Source: Candidatus Fimimonas sp. (GTDB taxonomy: Bacteria > Bacillota > Clostridia > Christensenellales > CAG-314). From it: a stretch of 64,000 nucleotides of DNA. Where the stretch lies: positions 44,314 to 108,313 of the forward strand of contig JAZRHU010000042.1 of the NCBI GenBank assembly GCA_045644945.1. Direction: 5' to 3'. Within the stretch, counting starts at the first letter, position 1, and each line of letters begins with the position of its first letter. The notes beneath the pieces are model-generated. The model had not been told where the DNA came from, searched no databases, and saw only the letters and a program-made list of their open reading frames with translations. Position numbers and translations under genes: made by a program. Positions 54,905 to 62,100 of the stretch are shown here, piece by piece.

Positions 54905-56389
54905 TTAGTTAATTTTTTCCAATTTGTCACCACAAATGTATGCATCAACTTTGCGACTTTCGTCCACGAGATAAACTTGTGCATTGTACTTTTTGAGTAC
55001 TGGCAAAATACCGCGGAAGCGATCCAACGCCTTGTTTTTGTTAGGCAAAAGCAGGTCGTAGATAACACCACCATCACCGCACACACCTTGGCCGACAAGC
55101 AACGTCAAGTTACTTTTATCCTGTTGAACAAATGTATTATTTCTGTAGTCAAGATGCCAGAACAAATCATTTTGGATTGTTTCAATATCATCAACTTTGG
55201 GAATGTAGATGTAACCCAATGTGTAGTGAGTAAGCCACAACGCTGGAGGCCCATCCTTTTTGAGGTCTTCTTGAGTCATTGTTGCAAGGTTTGGCGCCAT
55301 CGATGCCAAATGGGCAATCTTTTCGCGCCCCAAAAGAGGAGTTCCTGTCATATTTTTGCCATCAGTCAGGTCAATTTGGAACATTTCGGGGAATGGAACT
55401 GGTGGTAACTTTTGATAGTAGTTGGAAATGGCCTCCACAACATCGCCAAGAGTTGCAAGTGCAATGTCGCTATCGATATATCTAATTGTAAACCACGCAT
55501 GATACATTTCTTCACCAAGCGCACAAGTAAGGTAGTTTTCGATATCTTGCACATAACTAAAAGTTTTGCGCTCACTAGAACGAAGTTTTTCCGGAATAAA
55601 CACGCGAAGTTCACTTTGACCATTTTCGCCACACTCGGTAAAGTAGGCAACCTTACTACTTTCGTTAAGCTTTGTCTTACCTTTATACTTGACTACACCG
55701 CCCTTAAGGCAAGGAATCATCTTCCAACCATTTTTCACAAAGACACTTGGCATATCGTTGAACACTTGTGCCAAAAATTGCAAGTCAAGGGCAAATTCCG
55801 GAGCGCTCGCGCATGCGCGCGCGTACAATACATAATTACCATCCACAACACGACCAAAAAGTTCCACTGGGAACATTATGCGAGAGAGTTCCTTGTTGAA
55901 AATTTTTGATAACTTTTTGTCATTACCCTTGTCGATACACTTTTTGATTTTGTCGTATTGCTTTTCCAAAAATGCACCAATTATGTAGTACAGAATGTCG
56001 TAGTAGATAACCCTGTCTCCTGGTTGACGGCGCAAACAGCACATGCCATCTAAATCCATTTCGACATAGTGGCCAGACAAATCAGCCGAGTCCCCACCAA
56101 AAGAGGAGCAACCTTTGCACTTTGCATCAACAAGTTTGCGAAGTTTTTCGTCATACTCGTCCTTTGTGAGCACAAACACATCGCAAGGCACAATGTGGTT
56201 TGGAGCATCGATATCCAAAGTTACAGCTTCCACCAAACTATCGATAAAATATGGTGGAATACTACCCAAGTTTTCGTCGCCAATGCCAAGTTTTTGTAAG
56301 GTTACTTGACCATTGAGTTGCTCAATGGTCTTGTCTTCCGGCAAAATATAGTAGTTAAAATGATAGAAAATACCTTTTAGTTGTTGCAT
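54905..56389 (-). CDS. Hypothetical protein (494 aa), no recognisable domain. It is the last gene of the TIR / RyR-domain cluster.
   Basis: Start at ATG 56389 (MQQLKGIFYHF) with an AAAGGA SD 6 nt upstream; the track uses TTG 56407. It lies 61 nt after the stop of the 835-aa gene. It contains a Cys cluster (KCKGCSSFGGD...GMCCLRR) and has no TM helix or signal peptide. Confidence 0.7.
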   Translation of the reverse strand: MQQLKGIFYHFNYYILPEDKTIEQLNGQVTLQKLGIGDENLGSIPPYFIDSLVEAVTLDIDAPNHIVPCDVFVLTKDEYDEKLRKLVDAKCKGCSSFGGDSADLSGHYVEMDLDGMCCLRRQPGDRVIYYDILYYIIGAFLEKQYDKIKKCIDKGNDKKLSKIFNKELSRIMFPVELFGRVVDGNYVLYARACASAPEFALDLQFLAQVFNDMPSVFVKNGWKMIPCLKGGVVKYKGKTKLNESSKVAYFTECGENGQSELRVFIPEKLRSSERKTFSYVQDIENYLTCALGEEMYHAWFTIRYIDSDIALATLGDVVEAISNYYQKLPPVPFPEMFQIDLTDGKNMTGTPLLGREKIAHLASMAPNLATMTQEDLKKDGPPALWLTHYTLGYIYIPKVDDIETIQNDLFWHLDYRNNTFVQQDKSNLTLLVGQGVCGDGGVIYDLLLPNKNKALDRFRGILPVLKKYNAQVYLVDESRKVDAYICGDKLEKIN

Positions 56390-56450
56390 AGATGTCCTTT
56401 TGTGCAATCAATTTATACATATTATCTGACCGAGATTTGTAAATTGGTGC

Positions 56451-58958
56451 TTATTTCGGAATGGATTTCAAATTTTTCAAAAGAATTTGCGAAGATTTCG
56501 AAATTTTAGCTAATTCTCCAAATAAAAATTTATATGTGTATATTACTTGTCCAACGTGAACATTTACAAGGTCATAGGCTTGTGTCCATTTATCCAACAT
56601 GTCGTACGGACAAATGCAAGTGTGCTGTTTGTTGTGACGGCGGAATGCCTTTTCCGATTTGTCATACTCGGCATAGACCCAGCCGTTGGCGATATGGAAA
56701 CGGTTCCAACGAAGGTGCTCTACCCTTTCGCAATACTCGCGATCGGAAGATTCGTCAACAAAAGCGTAGTTAATTGCAAAACTAAACGCGCTTCGATTAG
56801 ACTCACGCGCAAAAGCGTTTACATCCAGCCAAATGTCCTTTCTTGCCACATCTAGCAGAGCCGTATCGTACCAAGCGCCATCATCACGAGCAATACTATC
56901 AATGATTTGTTGCTCGATTGCAGACAGTTGTTCTTGTCCACCACGTTCCGCTTCCATAGCGTGCGACTTGACATTGTACATGTAGTTGTACATACTTGCA
57001 CTTTCATCATCGATAATGTTGCCATAGGACCAAATGTTTTCGCGACAGCCAAATGAAACAACTCTAAAGTGGTTTGCAAAGAATTTTTCGTCTTCTGGAG
57101 ACCAATTGAGACGATGTGCGTTCTTTTCATCACGGATATGTACAAAAATTGTAATAATCTCGTTGTCCAAAGCGCCATGAGGCTTGCCTGTAAGCAAAAT
57201 TTCGTGTTTGAAGTCGTCAATCAAGATGTTTGCCATAACAAGGTTATCTTCGTCGTTACCCATGGACACAACAAAGGAGTTATAGTGAACACTGTCCTTG
57301 TCGAAAATTCCCAAGGATTTATCAATCTTGTTCATAAAGTCTTGACGCAAGCAGGAAACACGGTGGTAGTCGACAATTGGGAAGGCCATATCTTCCCACA
57401 CTTGATCGCGAGTCATTTGCAAAGGACTTGCTTTAGCTCTATCGTAGATGTACTTCAATGCATCATTAGATGCTTCCTTGCCCCAAGCAATAAGATTAGC
57501 ATTAGATATAGGCATGTGATCTGCCGCATCCGTCTTGCAAAGGAACAATGGATGAGCGTACGCAAACTCGCCCGAGCGCTTGTCCGCATCAAGGTCGTAC
57601 ACGTCAGCAATAAATTGAGAAGAAACATACTTGCCATCCACCTTTGCGACATTGGATGTAGCGGCAAAAATACTCTTTAGTGCATATTGACCAGTTTTAC
57701 CAAAGCCAAAGATAGCTGTGCGATAAACATTTTCCGCACCGGGCAATGTGCTTTTACGATAATTGTTGTGACTGGCTTCGTCCCACTTTTTCATAAAGGT
57801 GTTTTGCCAGCTTGTTACAAGGTCATCAGCTGTAAGTTTTGCTTCGCTCAAAATGTGCAGTTGCAAACTACGCAAAATGAGTTGCTTTTTGCTAATGGAT
57901 TTGCCGTATTGGTCAACAATTTGGGTGTTTTCAATGTAGTTAAGCTTGAAAAAATTATCAACAATTGCAGAAATACGTGTATTGTAGAACTCGTAGTTGA
58001 TGTCACCATGAGTTAACAAGTAGTAGTTAACAACTGTAGGGATTGGGTCAACCTCGTCCTTAGCTTTGCTAAATTTGCTCATACCCTTGCAGTAGTCATT
58101 GAGCAAAGATTGAATATCGTCAAACACGAAGTTACTATTGTGGTTTTCCGCAGCATACATGTTTGCATCATTTAGCAAGGAGAAAATGTGCACCATCTTG
58201 TTGTGATTGAAGCCCTTGTCGCGTTTTTGGCAACTCTTTTTGGTGTAATGTAGCTTTTTGAGAAGGGATAGCTCGCGATCTTTGTCGGAAACTTTTGCAT
58301 ATGACCAGTAGATGTAGCCACGATCCATAATTTCGCGATGCAACTCGTTTTTGTTGTCAAATGCTTCCAGTTCGTTACCCATAAACAAAATTGCGTAGGA
58401 ACTGCGCACCCCACGAGATTTTTCCACTTGATCAATATCTGCAGCCATGATAAGTGCTTCTTCAGTAACATCGGGGAAAATGTAAACAGTATCAAACTTG
58501 CGCAAAAATCCGCCAATCTTAAAGAAAGAGTACACCTCGTAGCTAACGCAAGTAGACAAAATGAGCAATGTGGATACACCTGCGTACGCAACCGCACCGT
58601 AGTACAAAATTTGCGCACCAACATCAATCATCCCCAAAAAGTCGTTTGGAGCGTAGGTGCCTTCGAAAGTTAGACCACCAATGAGCGCATACAAAGCAAA
58701 CAAACCGCTAGAGATACCATCCCAAATAGAATCAAAACCGCCTTGCTCTTGTTGCACATATAAAATTGCAACAATAAAGCGCGCAATGAAACTAACAGCA
58801 ATGGTACCGCCCATGATGATAATTTCGTTCATAAACTTGCGTTCTGGGTGTTTTTGGCGCAGTTTGAAGTAGGCAAGTAGCGTAAGCCCTTCCAAAACGG
58901 CCAAAATCAACACAGCCAAAATGCCAAATAATATGGAAATCAAAATATCTGTCCACAT
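56451..58958 (-). CDS. Membrane protein with an N-terminal 4-5 TM bundle, two Rossmann/RCK (TrkA_N)-like modules and a C-terminal RyR-type domain.
   Basis: 835 aa with an AAAAGGAG SD. TM helices lie in residues 1-145. Module 1 is TVYIFPDVTEEALIMAADID...AILFMGNE. Module 2 has the dinucleotide loop RTAIFGFGKTGQYALK and SMGNDEDNLVMANILIDD. The C-terminus VEHLRWNRFHIANGWVYAEYD...KQHTCICPYDMLDKWTQAYDLVNV follows the RyR-domain pattern (H..W......GW.Y....K.H....PY..L......D). Confidence 0.75.
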   Translation of the reverse strand: MWTDILISILFGILAVLILAVLEGLTLLAYFKLRQKHPERKFMNEIIIMGGTIAVSFIARFIVAILYVQQEQGGFDSIWDGISSGLFALYALIGGLTFEGTYAPNDFLGMIDVGAQILYYGAVAYAGVSTLLILSTCVSYEVYSFFKIGGFLRKFDTVYIFPDVTEEALIMAADIDQVEKSRGVRSSYAILFMGNELEAFDNKNELHREIMDRGYIYWSYAKVSDKDRELSLLKKLHYTKKSCQKRDKGFNHNKMVHIFSLLNDANMYAAENHNSNFVFDDIQSLLNDYCKGMSKFSKAKDEVDPIPTVVNYYLLTHGDINYEFYNTRISAIVDNFFKLNYIENTQIVDQYGKSISKKQLILRSLQLHILSEAKLTADDLVTSWQNTFMKKWDEASHNNYRKSTLPGAENVYRTAIFGFGKTGQYALKSIFAATSNVAKVDGKYVSSQFIADVYDLDADKRSGEFAYAHPLFLCKTDAADHMPISNANLIAWGKEASNDALKYIYDRAKASPLQMTRDQVWEDMAFPIVDYHRVSCLRQDFMNKIDKSLGIFDKDSVHYNSFVVSMGNDEDNLVMANILIDDFKHEILLTGKPHGALDNEIITIFVHIRDEKNAHRLNWSPEDEKFFANHFRVVSFGCRENIWSYGNIIDDESASMYNYMYNVKSHAMEAERGGQEQLSAIEQQIIDSIARDDGAWYDTALLDVARKDIWLDVNAFARESNRSAFSFAINYAFVDESSDREYCERVEHLRWNRFHIANGWVYAEYDKSEKAFRRHNKQHTCICPYDMLDKWTQAYDLVNVHVGQVIYTYKFLFGELAKISKSSQILLKNLKSIPK

Positions 58959-59090: not shown

Positions 59091-59119
59091 ATTATACCAC
59101 AAGTGGTATAAAATTTAAA
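59091..59119 (-). promoter_or_regulatory. Extended -10 promoter for the 835-aa gene, overlapped by a perfect 8+8 palindrome.
   Basis: In minus orientation: TTTAAA (59119-59114), 17 nt spacer, TGGTATAAT (59099-59091). The palindrome TATACCAC-AA-GTGGTATA (59093-59110) covers the -10 element and the spacer. Confidence 0.6.
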
Positions 59120-59123
59120 CTGT

Positions 59124-62100
59124 TTATTGGTATTTTTTCATTGCTTGGCGCACTTCGCCCAATATTTGCATGCAAGATTTGTCCATTGGATTGTCATTTA
59201 GCAAAGTTTGCAAAACTTCTTCCGCCTTTTCCAATGGCTCGATACCAGCAAATTGACCAAGAGTCAAACAATATTTAGCCAAACTTAGCCAATCATCCCA
59301 TTCGTTTGTGATGGTTGCAAAATCCAAAGCAATTTCGATAGCTGGAGCAAGGTGTTCAACAGCACTTTCAACATCGCCAATTTGATAGTAATATGCACCC
59401 AAACTGTGTTCCACTTCAGCAAGCAATCTTGTTGACGTAGCATACAATTGCGCATGATCTTCCATTTGATCATCATCTTGGATTTGCAAACAAAATTCGC
59501 GCCCTTGAGTTAGCAAGCCCTTTGCAATATTGTAGTAGTCCACAGCATTTTCGTAATCGTAAAGGTGGTCATAGCAATCGGCAACATCCTTACAATCACT
59601 TCCGCATGCTACCAAGTTGGCGCAGTTATCGTCCTTTTGAGCCATTGCAAGCGTGTCGGCAACAACCATCAAAAGATAGTCCAATTGCTTGGAATACTCT
59701 TGGTTATCTTTGTGGAAAATTGCAAATCTGCGCCAAACATCCGTCAAAACTTCTTGTTCTGCATCATCCTGCTCTACAGCAGATTTTGCACACGCCAAAG
59801 CCTTGTTGTAGTACTGCAAAGCAAGATTGTCGTCATCGGCAAAGTGACAGATGTCTGCAACAGTTAGGTAAGAGCTGGACAAAACTTCGTCGGGGTACAA
59901 TTTGAGTTTTCGTAGTTCCGTCAAGTTTTCTTCAAGCACACCTATACCATCAAGCATACATTGTTTTGCTTTGTCCACTTGTTCAATTTTAGTATAGATT
60001 TGGCAAAGCTGATAGTTTGTTGAGTAAATACTACGCGCATGAGTTGGTGACTTGGAAATTTGCATCACTTGCTTGATTGCTTCTAGTCTACTTTGGCAAT
60101 AGAAAATGGCTTTGTCGTACTCTTGCATATCTACATAGAGGTCGGAAAGATCTTCCAACAATGAGATATGTACGTCAAAAATGTACGGTGAGTTAACACG
60201 ACTAACCAAGTCTTTGCTTATAGTCAAAGCATTTTCGTAACACTCAATTGCCAGCTCGTCATTTTCTTCAATTAGATGGTAAAAGTTACCCAAATATGAC
60301 AAATCCACTATACATTGGCGCCAGTTTTCGGCAGATTCGTGCGCTTTGGCATAGTTTAGGTCAAGCTCAAAGGCTTTGAGGGCATACTCCAATGATTGAT
60401 CAGGATCCTTTTCCACTAGCAAACTAGACAAACCGTAGTAAAATGGAGCCATATCGCGTAGATAGTTATCATTTGGAATATCTTCGTGCAACTTCAAAAG
60501 AACGTCCAATCCTTTACCATACAACTCTTCACTCTTTTCGAGGTCCTTCAGCCCGAGCATCATTCTTGCCAAGTTGTAGTAGCAATCGGACAAAAGTTCA
60601 TAAAACTGCGTAGTTGGATTGTTTTCAATCAGTCCTAAAAGCAATTTTTCCGCATTGTGCAACATTTCAACAGCTTTTTCTTGATCGGAAAGGTTGTCGT
60701 ACAACTTTGCAACACTTATATAGGTGGATGCAAGGGTATGTTGAGTTTCCGGAATAGGTGCAAATTTTACCAATTCTTCACGGAGATACAACGCTTTTAG
60801 AATGTAGTCCTCCGCCTCGTCGTAGTCGCCCAAAGCGCGAGCATTGGCAGAAAGATTGAAGAGTGTTCGAGCAAGTCTTTGTCTGTCAGCAACGTCCGCT
60901 TGCTTGTCGGCAAGTTGAATAGCAATGTCCAATGCTTTGAGATACCAGTTGCGCTCTTCCAACAAGTCTTCCTCGAAGTTGGCAAGGCTTGCCATTCGCG
61001 CGTAGACAACGTGCAAAGAGTCCTTGGTATAGTCGGTGTTTTGTTCTTGATCTAACCTTTCGGCAAGAGCCAAAGCTTGCAATATGACTTCGCGAGCATT
61101 TGGGATATCACACATTCGTTCGTAGATATCGTACAAGTCGGTGTAGCAACACAATAGTGAATCGTCGCAATATGCGCGGTTATCTGGATCCAACTCGGCA
61201 ATCATGTTTAGCACACGCAAACGATCATTGTGGTAGGCAAGGGATTGTTCGTATTTACCTTGGCTTTCGTAGCATCTACCCAAGTTTCGGTAGCAAGTAG
61301 ACAGGTTGTAGCATGTGTCAATAGAAGGATCAATTTCCGCGAGCTCTTCGGAATATTTCAAAGCCAAAAGATAGTACTCTTGCGCCTTGTCAAATTCGTA
61401 TTTAGAGCTGTGCACTTCTCCAAGGAAGTTGCATGCGTAGGAAAGCATACTCTTGACAAATGCAAAATCGCGTTGTTCGGCACATCCTAACCACCACTCG
61501 CAAAATCCCTTGAGGGTGTTGTAAACCTGGATGGATTTGTCGTAGTCGAGTAGCGATTTGTACATATCGCCCAAGTTGATAAGCTGTGAGTAGTAGTCAA
61601 TCTTTGTATCACGCAGCCCTTGTGGCAAAATTTGTTTGATTACGTAGACATAGCGTTCTTGCCATTTGATGGCCTCAGTTATATCACGTTCGACGCCCTT
61701 GCCATACTTGTACATGTCAACAATGGTTTCAAAAGAACTAAAATAGCCCCTGCCTGCGCAATATTTGAGCATTTCTAGCGCTCGTGCGTGGTCAACTTCC
61801 ACATCGATACCATCTAGATATGCCAAAGCAAGCAAGTGATAACGTGGAACGTCATCTTTGGGATCCACATCGCGTGGGAAGAACTTTGCAAGTTCTTGCA
61901 TAAGCACTTGCTCGTCACTTTCGCTAATTACTGTGGGCAAATTTGCGTACTGATTTTTGAGCATAGATTTGTCCGTTGGACACATTTCTACTGGCATAAC
62001 CGCTTTGCCACTTTCCAACGCCATGGGGTACTCTACCGCTTGAACATAGTTGGGCTCGCAAACAAGATTAGGAGTTACCGAAAGCAAAAACAATTGGCTT

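Follow-up and report, generated by a model that had tools for sequence, protein, structure and literature searches.

TIR-based systems such as Thoeris are a fast-growing class of bacterial immunity, in which each new effector type shows a new way of sensing a signal derived from nicotinamide adenine dinucleotide (NAD). In type X Thoeris the TIR protein (ThsB) is accompanied by an ion-channel effector (ThsK), and the signal is unknown (10.64898/2025.12.03.692087). Phage proteins with a RyR domain bind or cleave the cyclic ADP-ribose (cADPR) isomers 2'cADPR and 3'cADPR via H/W/H/D residues (PMC13232231; 10.64898/2026.06.04.730250). The phage glycosidase RyDEP binds 3'cADPR by H75, W78, H100 and D117, six of eight other homologs tested in that study bind 2'/3'cADPR, and two characterised sponges do so with nanomolar affinity (PMC13232231), while the sponge RyR Tad of a Pectobacterium phage binds 3'cADPR with a dissociation constant (Kd) of 43 nM via H129/W132, H154 and D171 (10.64898/2026.06.04.730250). 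The corresponding animal domain, R12, binds ATP and other adenine ligands (PMC13232231; 10.64898/2026.06.04.730250). Here we describe a locus of Candidatus Fimimonas sp., located in a 64,000-nt stretch of contig JAZRHU010000042.1 (positions 44,314 to 108,313, hereafter the window), in which a RyR domain is the C-terminal module of an 835-aa membrane protein of the host, encoded next to a TIR gene:

56451..58958, minus strand: main gene, encoding the 835-aa membrane protein (open reading frame (ORF) list; ATG start)
59124..62753, minus strand: upstream gene, encoding a 1209-aa protein with a TIR-like module, a TIR_2 domain and Sel1/TPR repeats (Pfam, PADLOC)

The 835-aa protein is probably an immune effector, because its relatives so often adjoin TIR enzymes. 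We give roughly even chances to the more specific reading that it is a Thoeris-like membrane effector gated by a cADPR-type signal. Its gene is preceded by the sequence AAAGGAG, placed 7 nt upstream of the start of the ORF, and the product is ordered as a transmembrane (TM) domain, two RCK-like modules, a helical linker, the RyR domain and a C-terminal helix:

58494..58958, minus strand: N-terminal membrane domain, aa 1-155 (DSSP of the AF2 model, hydrophobicity scan)
58659..58682, minus strand: conserved IGGLTFEG motif, aa 93-100, at the end of helix 3 (family alignments)
57744..58493, minus strand: RCK-like alpha/beta module 1, aa 156-405, without GxGxxG (strand/helix order of the AF2 model)
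57009..57743, minus strand: RCK/KTN-like module 2, aa 406-650 (conserved motifs, fold matches)
57690..57707, minus strand: GFGKTG of module 2, aa 418-423 (family alignment)
57222..57266, minus strand: SMGNDEDNLVMANIL of module 2, aa 565-579 (family alignment)
56754..57008, minus strand: helical linker, aa 651-735, with conserved W710 and S720-N721 (family alignment)
56544..56753, minus strand: RyR (R12-type) domain, aa 736-805, with H748, W751, H779 and D796 (Pfam, phmmer, family profile)
56454..56543, minus strand: C-terminal amphipathic helix, aa 806-835 (AF2 model helix 790-831)

The RyR assignment, made by sequence comparison, is weak for the single sequence and clear for the family, and is more than a chance match. 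Taken alone, aa 747-797 scored 17.5 bits (E 0.0048) against the Pfam RyR model (PF02026), below its cutoff of 27.4, and the segment matched the PDB by phmmer at 1.4e-5. Pfam RyR was matched at E<0.01 in 31 of 48 family members, a precomputed PF02026 match exists for several homologs, and the family profile matched the PDB RyR chains 6uhi at 2.7e-13 and 3nrt, from Bacteroides thetaiotaomicron, at 8.9e-6. The C-terminal RyR segment proposed in the preliminary description of this DNA, which had been made from the sequence alone, was borne out by the profile match and by the retained tetrad, with the single-sequence score remaining below the cutoff. Conservation in the family is at least 90% for each of the four residues H748, W751, H779 and D796, and in a HMMER alignment to 3NRT they fall at the positions of H75/W78/H100/D117 of RyDEP and H129/W132/H154/D171 of RyR Tad, giving the 835-aa protein the ligand-pocket pattern H-x2-W…H…D. 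The spacing from H to W and from H to D is the same as in RyDEP and RyR Tad, and that from W to H is 28 versus 22 residues, which represents a 6-residue insert.

The domain therefore shares both fold family and ligand residues with RyDEP and RyR Tad, but these phage proteins are small, soluble and dimeric and counter host immunity, whereas here the RyR domain is the C-terminal module of a host membrane protein and would receive the signal, not degrade or sequester it. The closest solved bacterial RyR sequence, 3NRT, differs likewise in being a 103-aa soluble protein without membrane or RCK parts; a similar 96-aa stand-alone RyR gene lies directly upstream of the subfamily member in locus L085. 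Repeat12 of the animal ryanodine receptor, which takes ATP and adenine ligands as well as dantrolene, is a homologous domain with the same ligand residues and is also carried on an ion-channel-type protein; it differs in that a single repeat is present here instead of tandem repeats, on an unrelated membrane and regulatory scaffold, and in bacteria rather than eukaryotes. Since phage RyR proteins bind or cleave cADPR isomers, the earlier view of bacterial RyR domains as having no determined function no longer holds where the domain itself is concerned, and the idea of an NAD-derived ligand has independent experimental precedent.

The TIR gene next door, also noted beforehand, was confirmed: the 1209-aa protein matched Pfam TIR_2 at 4.7e-8 (above the cutoff), TPR_12 at 8e-23 and Sel1 repeats, and the PADLOC model ThsB at 7e-7. 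The TIR_2 match is located as follows:

61980..62258, minus strand: TIR_2 domain, aa 166-258 (Pfam)

Residue E241 of this domain is invariant in 30 homologs and is a candidate for the catalytic Glu, with the alignment to AbTIR being offset by 4 residues from E208. A second, N-terminal TIR-like module (aa ~17-115, RVYFCCHPDDF…IPVLPLM) was not detected by Pfam, and as it lacks a conserved Glu at the catalytic position, the 1209-aa protein would be a tandem TIR in which probably only the TIR_2 domain is active. This pair of N-terminal modules recurs at 47-62% identity across 460+ gut Firmicutes proteins, and the complete protein is a candidate signal-producing sensor.

The arrangement resembles Thoeris, above all type X and the type II pair of TIR and TM-Macro, in having a TIR gene beside one for a membrane protein whose cytosolic part includes a domain that binds small molecules; ThsB-type models match the TIR domain here, and a membrane or ion-channel effector has precedent. 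It differs in that the sensor would be a RyR domain, with RyR and PF02026 unmentioned in the searched text and supplements of the type X study (10.64898/2025.12.03.692087), and in that the TIR protein is a 1209-aa double-TIR protein with Sel1/TPR repeats and not a short ThsB, and the pairing is not constant in the subfamily. The type X TIR sequences from the preprint supplement, compared on the TIR side alone, gave no phmmer match (E<=1) in any locus studied, and full-text literature searches found no paper on a bacterial TIR-associated membrane protein with a RyR domain.

A word-indexed search recovered 52 homologs of the 835-aa protein, and an exhaustive profile search recovered 208 clusters at E<=1e-30, rising to 819 with the threshold relaxed to E<=1e-10. 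The genome scan for loci, which used a 13-sequence alignment, also drew in loci that matched only via the C-terminal end, and these carry tandem pairs of related genes. The first member of such a pair encodes a protein of ~620 aa in which membrane helices are combined with a Rossmann motif (GFGxxGQ) and a RyR-like end, and the second encodes a bona fide K+ channel of ~520 aa, with an Ion_trans_2 pore and a RyR domain. The ~520-aa family has both the filter and the profile of a K+ pore, with an invariant TTVGYGD and Ion_trans_2 matches of 1e-11 to 1e-14, and in the PDB it matched KvAP/KcsA at ~1e-20 and RyR1 at ~1e-18. In hhalign, the query family aligned with the ~620-aa partner type over the full length (99.8%, E 6e-29, 562 columns) and with the K+ channel type from the filter position to the RyR end (98.8%, E 4.5e-17, 431 columns), and the W…SN motif of the linker is common to the sister families. 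Judged from these alignments, the 835-aa protein and true K+ channels whose cytosolic part is likewise RCK-RyR are members of one superfamily. At four loci, the gene of the query subfamily has a more divergent paralog of 413-744 aa directly upstream, in which membrane helices, GFGKT and EHERWN are present and IGGLTFEG is absent. PADLOC-DB has no model for any of these RyR membrane proteins, the sister families included, and NCBIfam gave no match for the 835-aa protein.

In the sister families the link to TIR proteins is strong. Among 119 neighbours of 30 sister loci, TIR_2 was the first-ranking Pfam family (7 members, best E 4e-22), and ThsB_TIR had 4 members and TIR 3. With a TIR hidden Markov model (HMM) built in this analysis, a TIR ORF was found within 1 kb in 20/58 sister loci, and in 11/31 of those with at least 3.5 kb on both sides; 21 of the 22 TIR ORFs are adjacent and one is distal, the gaps are often 0-25 nt, and there are several start/stop overlaps. 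All ten of the TIR ORFs that were checked matched Pfam TIR_2, nine above the cutoff, and in these proteins the TIR domain is joined either to beta-propeller repeats, of ~950 aa, or to Sel1 repeats. A TIR neighbour was also present in 9/37 further non-duplicate metagenome sister loci.

In metagenome-assembled genomes (MAGs) of Lachnospiraceae, Solobacterium and Oscillospiraceae, we observed a three-gene operon encoding the ~620-aa TM-Rossmann-RyR protein, the ~520-aa K+ channel-RyR protein and a ~1100-aa TIR-beta-propeller protein, at loci which include L024, L035 (6762-13440), L038, L043, L053, L058, L068 and L072. Stop and start codons often overlap in this operon, which has the look of a defence system not yet described and is the clearest form of the pairing that we propose. 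Sister pairs without TIR (L029:6390-13105, L065, L027) are often flanked on the upstream side by an AAA ATPase of 659-674 aa, which weakly matches the PADLOC models IetA and PDC-M37B, and by an overlapping nucleoside hydrolase of the inosine-uridine type directly downstream; the ATPase or hydrolase may be an alternative partner that makes or processes a signal. As far as sequence neighbourhoods can tell, the TIR link is strong for the superfamily of RyR-bearing RCK membrane proteins, and suggestive but not constant for the subfamily of the 835-aa protein itself.

The AF2 model of the 835-aa protein, built on a 48-sequence alignment, had a pLDDT of 85 and a pTM of 0.83. The two Rossmann-like modules that had been predicted, the second with GFGKTG and SMGNDEDNLVMANIL, were seen in both model and alignment. 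Module 2 has D452/D455 after beta2 and the KTN-type motif G-x-D-E-x-N-(x3)-A-N at G567-N577, and all the listed motifs of the protein are conserved across the family. Module 2 thereby resembles the KTN domain (TrkA_N) of Trk/Ktr in its GxGxxG, its acid after beta2 and its G567-N577 motif, but differs in that Pfam TrkA_N (PF02254) gave no match at E<=1 for the 835-aa protein, nor for the 48 members or 43 long relatives; one distant relative, L028, matched it at E 0.0026, which falls short of the cutoff. In Foldseek, the top PDB matches of the full model were Slo2.2, Slo1/BK, MthK and the BK gating ring (for Slo2.2/Slo1/MthK, probability up to 1.0, E 4.5e-4), and a sub-model of aa 1-410 again had Slo2/Slo1 as top matches (E 1.4e-3, probability 1.0), with TM-scores not improved and G protein-coupled receptor-like bundles among the matches. 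The combination of GxGxxG, acid after beta2 and a match to the fold of an RCK ring is present in module 2 only. As no TrkA_N profile match was found, the RCK assignment rests on the motifs and on weak fold matches; the earlier naming of these modules as RCK thus holds for the GxGxxG and Asp motifs and the modest Slo/MthK matches, and not for the HMM search. Like MthK and Slo1/Slo2, the protein has a membrane domain followed by RCK modules, two per chain as in Slo, but it differs from them in lacking TVGYG and Ion_trans_2 or TrkA_N matches, in its low TM-scores and in its extra RyR domain. Module 2 looks able to bind a dinucleotide or ATP, and the modelled C-terminal helix is a possible oligomerisation helix.

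RCK rings attach to ion-transport domains, and the membrane domain of the 835-aa protein occupies the position of the K+ pore in the homologous sister protein. The N-terminal membrane bundle without TVGYG that had been described was recovered in the AF2 model as four TM helices (2-36, 41-72, 78-96 and 113-138) and an amphipathic helix (140-151), with a loop at 97-112 of low confidence; a hydrophobicity scan gave hydrophobic segments at aa 4-22, 46-64 and 117-135. A K/R-rich loop at aa 32-41 argues for an N-out/C-in topology with helix 78-96 re-entrant, as this orientation would fit both the loop and a cytosolic RCK part only if helix 78-96 and the following loop are re-entrant, as in P-loop channels. 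The best-conserved motif of the membrane domain is IGGLTFEG, in which G100 is invariant and G94, G95, F98 and E99 are at least 90% conserved; at the acidic position most members have E and a few have D, and the loop after the motif is acidic as well. We lean towards a membrane domain that conducts ions. Neither a TVGYG filter nor an Ion_trans_2 (PF07885) match was found in it, and Pfam gave no match there; as there is no K+ filter and the conserved acidic IGGLTFEG is found instead, any pore would therefore not be K+-selective.

In the window, the two genes form a block with a third gene, all in one direction, in the order 1209-aa gene, 165-bp gap, 835-aa gene, 43-bp gap, 500-aa gene. The remaining features of the block and its surroundings are:

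54905..56407, minus strand: downstream gene, encoding a 500-aa soluble protein (ORF list)
59119..59091, minus strand: promoter-like site TTTAAA-17-TGgTATAAT in the 165-bp gap (consensus match only)
63077..63285, plus strand: tRNA-Cys and tRNA-Leu, the boundary of the block on the TIR side (Rfam)

An extended -10 promoter of its own had been assigned to the 835-aa gene, and the TTTAAA-17-TGgTATAAT sequence is indeed present. It is a consensus match, and because such matches were as frequent in shuffled sequence (18 promoter-like sites in the region versus 19.9 in shuffles), the site is a hint only.

The three-gene block is kept in three close relatives (L001, L002 and L088), in which the 835-aa protein is 90%, 82% and 68% identical, and the rest of its own subfamily is 23-43% identical to it. 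A TIR gene thus adjoins in the window, L001, L002 and L088, and this adjacency, which is strong in the sister families, is seen in only three lineages of the own subfamily, each with a different TIR-type neighbour: the TIR-TPR protein of the window, a 1177-aa DUF4062 protein (L089) and a TIR-NACHT-leucine-rich repeat protein (L083). DUF4062 is a TIR-like NADase (10.64898/2026.05.01.722283). Locus L089 (71-11424), where a subfamily member of 42% identity directly follows genes for an ADP-ribosylglycohydrolase, SbcD/SbcC-like proteins, the 1177-aa DUF4062 protein and a protein of 175 aa, is a second, independent TIR-type pairing; the TIR-TPR protein and the L089 DUF4062 protein showed no similarity.

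Observations on gene context and on the protein itself weigh against the reading of a TIR-coupled effector. The TIR-type neighbours are confined to the three lineages named above, and in 131 neighbours from 24 loci (23 relatives and the window) TIR was not among the 25 commonest Pfam families. Six loci of the subfamily (L007, L009, L014, L017/L090, L018 and L091) have no TIR gene and lie in a core-gene context, clpP-clpP-X-285aa-ruvCAB-queA-tgt(-yajC-secDF), with a TraG-like gene alongside. In its divergence the 835-aa gene keeps pace with RecJ, as a core gene would, and does not behave as a fast-evolving immune gene: identity to the window in L001, L002 and L088 was 89.6%, 81.5% and 67.7% for the 835-aa gene and 89.8%, 81.5% and 71.8% for RecJ, as compared with 87.5%, 53% and 40% for TIR-TPR, whose divergence, faster than that of its neighbours, is like that of an immune sensor at the sequence level. 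The 165-bp gap with its promoter-like site separates the 835-aa gene from the TIR gene. The five loci examined around two double-TIR-module homologs are TIR-rich islands without a RyR gene, and large TIR-repeat proteins can deplete NAD+ alone. PADLOC gave no match for the 835-aa protein, and the TM-scores in Foldseek were low (~0.25).

Several of these points would be accommodated by a housekeeping role, in which the protein is a nucleotide-gated cation channel or transport regulator and the TIR gene is an unrelated stand-alone defence gene inserted near a tRNA. The RyR domain and the KTN-type module would then sense ATP/ADP/AMP, NAD(H) or cAMP and couple ion flux to the energy state. The core-gene context of the six loci, the RecJ-like divergence next to the much faster TIR-TPR gene, the promoter-like site in the gap, the RyR-free TIR islands, the adenine ligands of animal R12 and the absence of a family match in phage records, plasmid records and IMG/VR are all in keeping with it. 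We nevertheless regard this role as less likely, as no family occurs beside the sister genes more often than TIR, in many cases with a stop codon overlapping the next start, members of the own subfamily have TIR-type proteins of three different kinds at their side, and the other neighbours are of a conflict type (NACHT/STAND, AAA ATPases, AAA-FtsH and a stand-alone RyR protein). The preliminary description had held that homologs found mostly in housekeeping contexts would speak against a TIR-linked effector, and the outcome is divided, with the six core-context loci on one side and the three TIR-type lineages on the other. Its proposal of a nucleotide-gated effector with a TIR-made, NAD-derived ligand stays the best-supported reading, on the phage RyR precedent and the TIR_2 neighbours of the sister families, and is held back by that same division in the own subfamily.

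On the side of the protein, the membrane pore is the weakest link of the effector reading. A membrane-domain profile searched against the PDB gave a chance match only, to cytochrome oxidase subunit 2. In a weak HMMER alignment (11.3 bits), IGGLTFEG is collinear with "…ATITTVGYGD" of the sister K+ channel, a signal that probably comes largely from the adjacent beta1 segment of RCK1. We withdrew the interpretation of IGGLTFEG as a demonstrably mutated selectivity filter, because the membrane domain and the sister K+ pore domain compared alone gave an hhalign probability of 0.3%; the same comparison with the ~620-aa partner family gave 6.4%. Over the whole protein, the query family has a closer relative in the non-pore partner type than in the K+ pore type, and the 835-aa protein may be no channel itself but a regulator or partner subunit anchored in the membrane. 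It would then resemble the ~620-aa protein encoded alongside the sister K+ channel, and would need a separate pore or transporter encoded elsewhere, or act by another membrane mechanism. Soluble RCK/KTN proteins such as TrkA and KtrA do regulate separate membrane subunits, and the membrane domain alone is without similarity to K+ pores. We consider such a subunit improbable, given that no pore-type paralog is present in the 64-kb window or beside any subfamily member, that the strongly conserved polar/acidic membrane motif would be needless in a simple anchor, and that the topology argument would favour a re-entrant loop. Finally, a membrane-anchored RyDEP-like glycosidase that converts 2'/3'cADPR to ADPR and so resets or dampens TIR signalling is very improbable, even with conserved H748 and D796 as equivalents of the RyDEP catalytic dyad, the ADP-ribosylglycohydrolase near the L089 member and the nucleoside hydrolase directly downstream at some sister loci, as non-catalytic sponges keep the same residues and the tandem RCK ring and conserved membrane domain have no obvious role in a hydrolase.

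For the effector reading, we propose a sequence of events that starts with the repeat domain of the TIR-TIR-Sel1/TPR protein, which would sense infection. Its TIR domain would then turn NAD+ into a cyclic ADP-ribose-type signal, as may be expected from TIR domains of this kind, and the signal would bind in the RyR pocket formed by the conserved H748, W751, H779 and D796, by analogy with the phage RyR proteins. The tandem RCK ring would pass the change on to the membrane domain, with module 2 possibly also reading NAD(H) or ATP. Ions would pass through the membrane domain, the membrane potential would collapse and the infected cell would halt. A more general proposition is that an axis from TIR via cADPR to a RyR-domain channel is an ancient immune module, with bacterial channel-type effectors gated through R12 by TIR-made cADPR isomers; we put this forward tentatively, with less than even confidence.

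The 500-aa protein encoded downstream had no Pfam, NCBIfam or PADLOC match. Only 14 homologs were found, 53-93% identical and all of the same narrow clade; the gene is always directly downstream of the RyR gene, and in each of the close relatives examined the three genes stay together. The protein may be a third component; alternatively, its gene may be specific to the lineage and unrelated to the pair. Beyond it, on the side opposite to the TIR gene, the block is bounded by the infC-rpmI-rplT operon, and the Rfam scan matched only the tRNA-Cys and tRNA-Leu on the TIR side. In public data, the nearest relatives are MAGs of Clostridia and Oscillospiraceae that come from gut samples of goats and other sources. 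Among sequencing runs the region turned up in low-depth gut DNA metagenomes only, and no RNA was found. The tRNA-Cys/tRNA-Leu region (window 63076-63542) reached ~300-fold contig depth in gut metagenomes versus ~1-15 elsewhere, as is expected for sequences common to many species, and this contrast shows that the host organism is rare in those gut samples.

Other members of the family have neighbours of several kinds. A TraG/VirD4-like gene and a 301-aa Sel1-like gene adjoin the family gene in ten loci, in three arrangements (L007, L009, L014, L017/L090, L018, L091, L008, L010, L082 and L084). A conjugative-element context, considered on account of the TraG-like neighbours, was rejected, with core genes around and no conjugation machinery. 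Locus L085 (3618-10295) has a row of genes for a 1179-aa AAA-AAA-FtsH(M41) protein, a 156-aa YbjN-like protein and the stand-alone 96-aa RyR protein, which closely resembles B. thetaiotaomicron 3NRT, followed by the subfamily member; in L081 and L082, too, a YbjN-like gene comes before that of the family. In a few of the long family members (P0018-P0190) a GDSL lipase or M20 peptidase domain is fused to the protein, and a separate GDSL lipase gene follows the family gene at L081:10409-11101. Both observations hint that some lineages have gained a further output, of a lytic or hydrolytic kind. The double-TIR homologs at L092:2463-5063 and L093:6623-11382 lie among TIR_2, ThsB_TIR, CAP12-PCTIR_TIR and TIR-STING-like genes, and the unannotated 729-aa gene beside them is not a member of the RyR family.

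Since the arrangement is unmentioned in the literature searched, has no PADLOC-DB model and leaves the type X TIRs unmatched, it is a candidate for a new Thoeris-like type, one whose effector senses its signal by a RyR domain. Binding of cADPR isomers by RyR domains was shown in 2026, only in phage counter-defence proteins, and if our reading is true, host and phage rely on one and the same sensor fold in their conflict. The reading would further mean that a new Thoeris-like type is common in gut Firmicutes, and would explain hundreds of unannotated RyR-bearing membrane proteins (the 208 clusters at E<=1e-30). The finding mirrors the relation between cADPR and the ryanodine receptor, where direct action of cADPR on R12 has been long disputed. 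With a bacterial protein of small size, or its sister with a canonical K+ pore, that could be purified and recorded, the question of cADPR and R12 would become directly testable, and the family would, if the reading is true, offer a simple bacterial model for direct cADPR action on ryanodine receptors.

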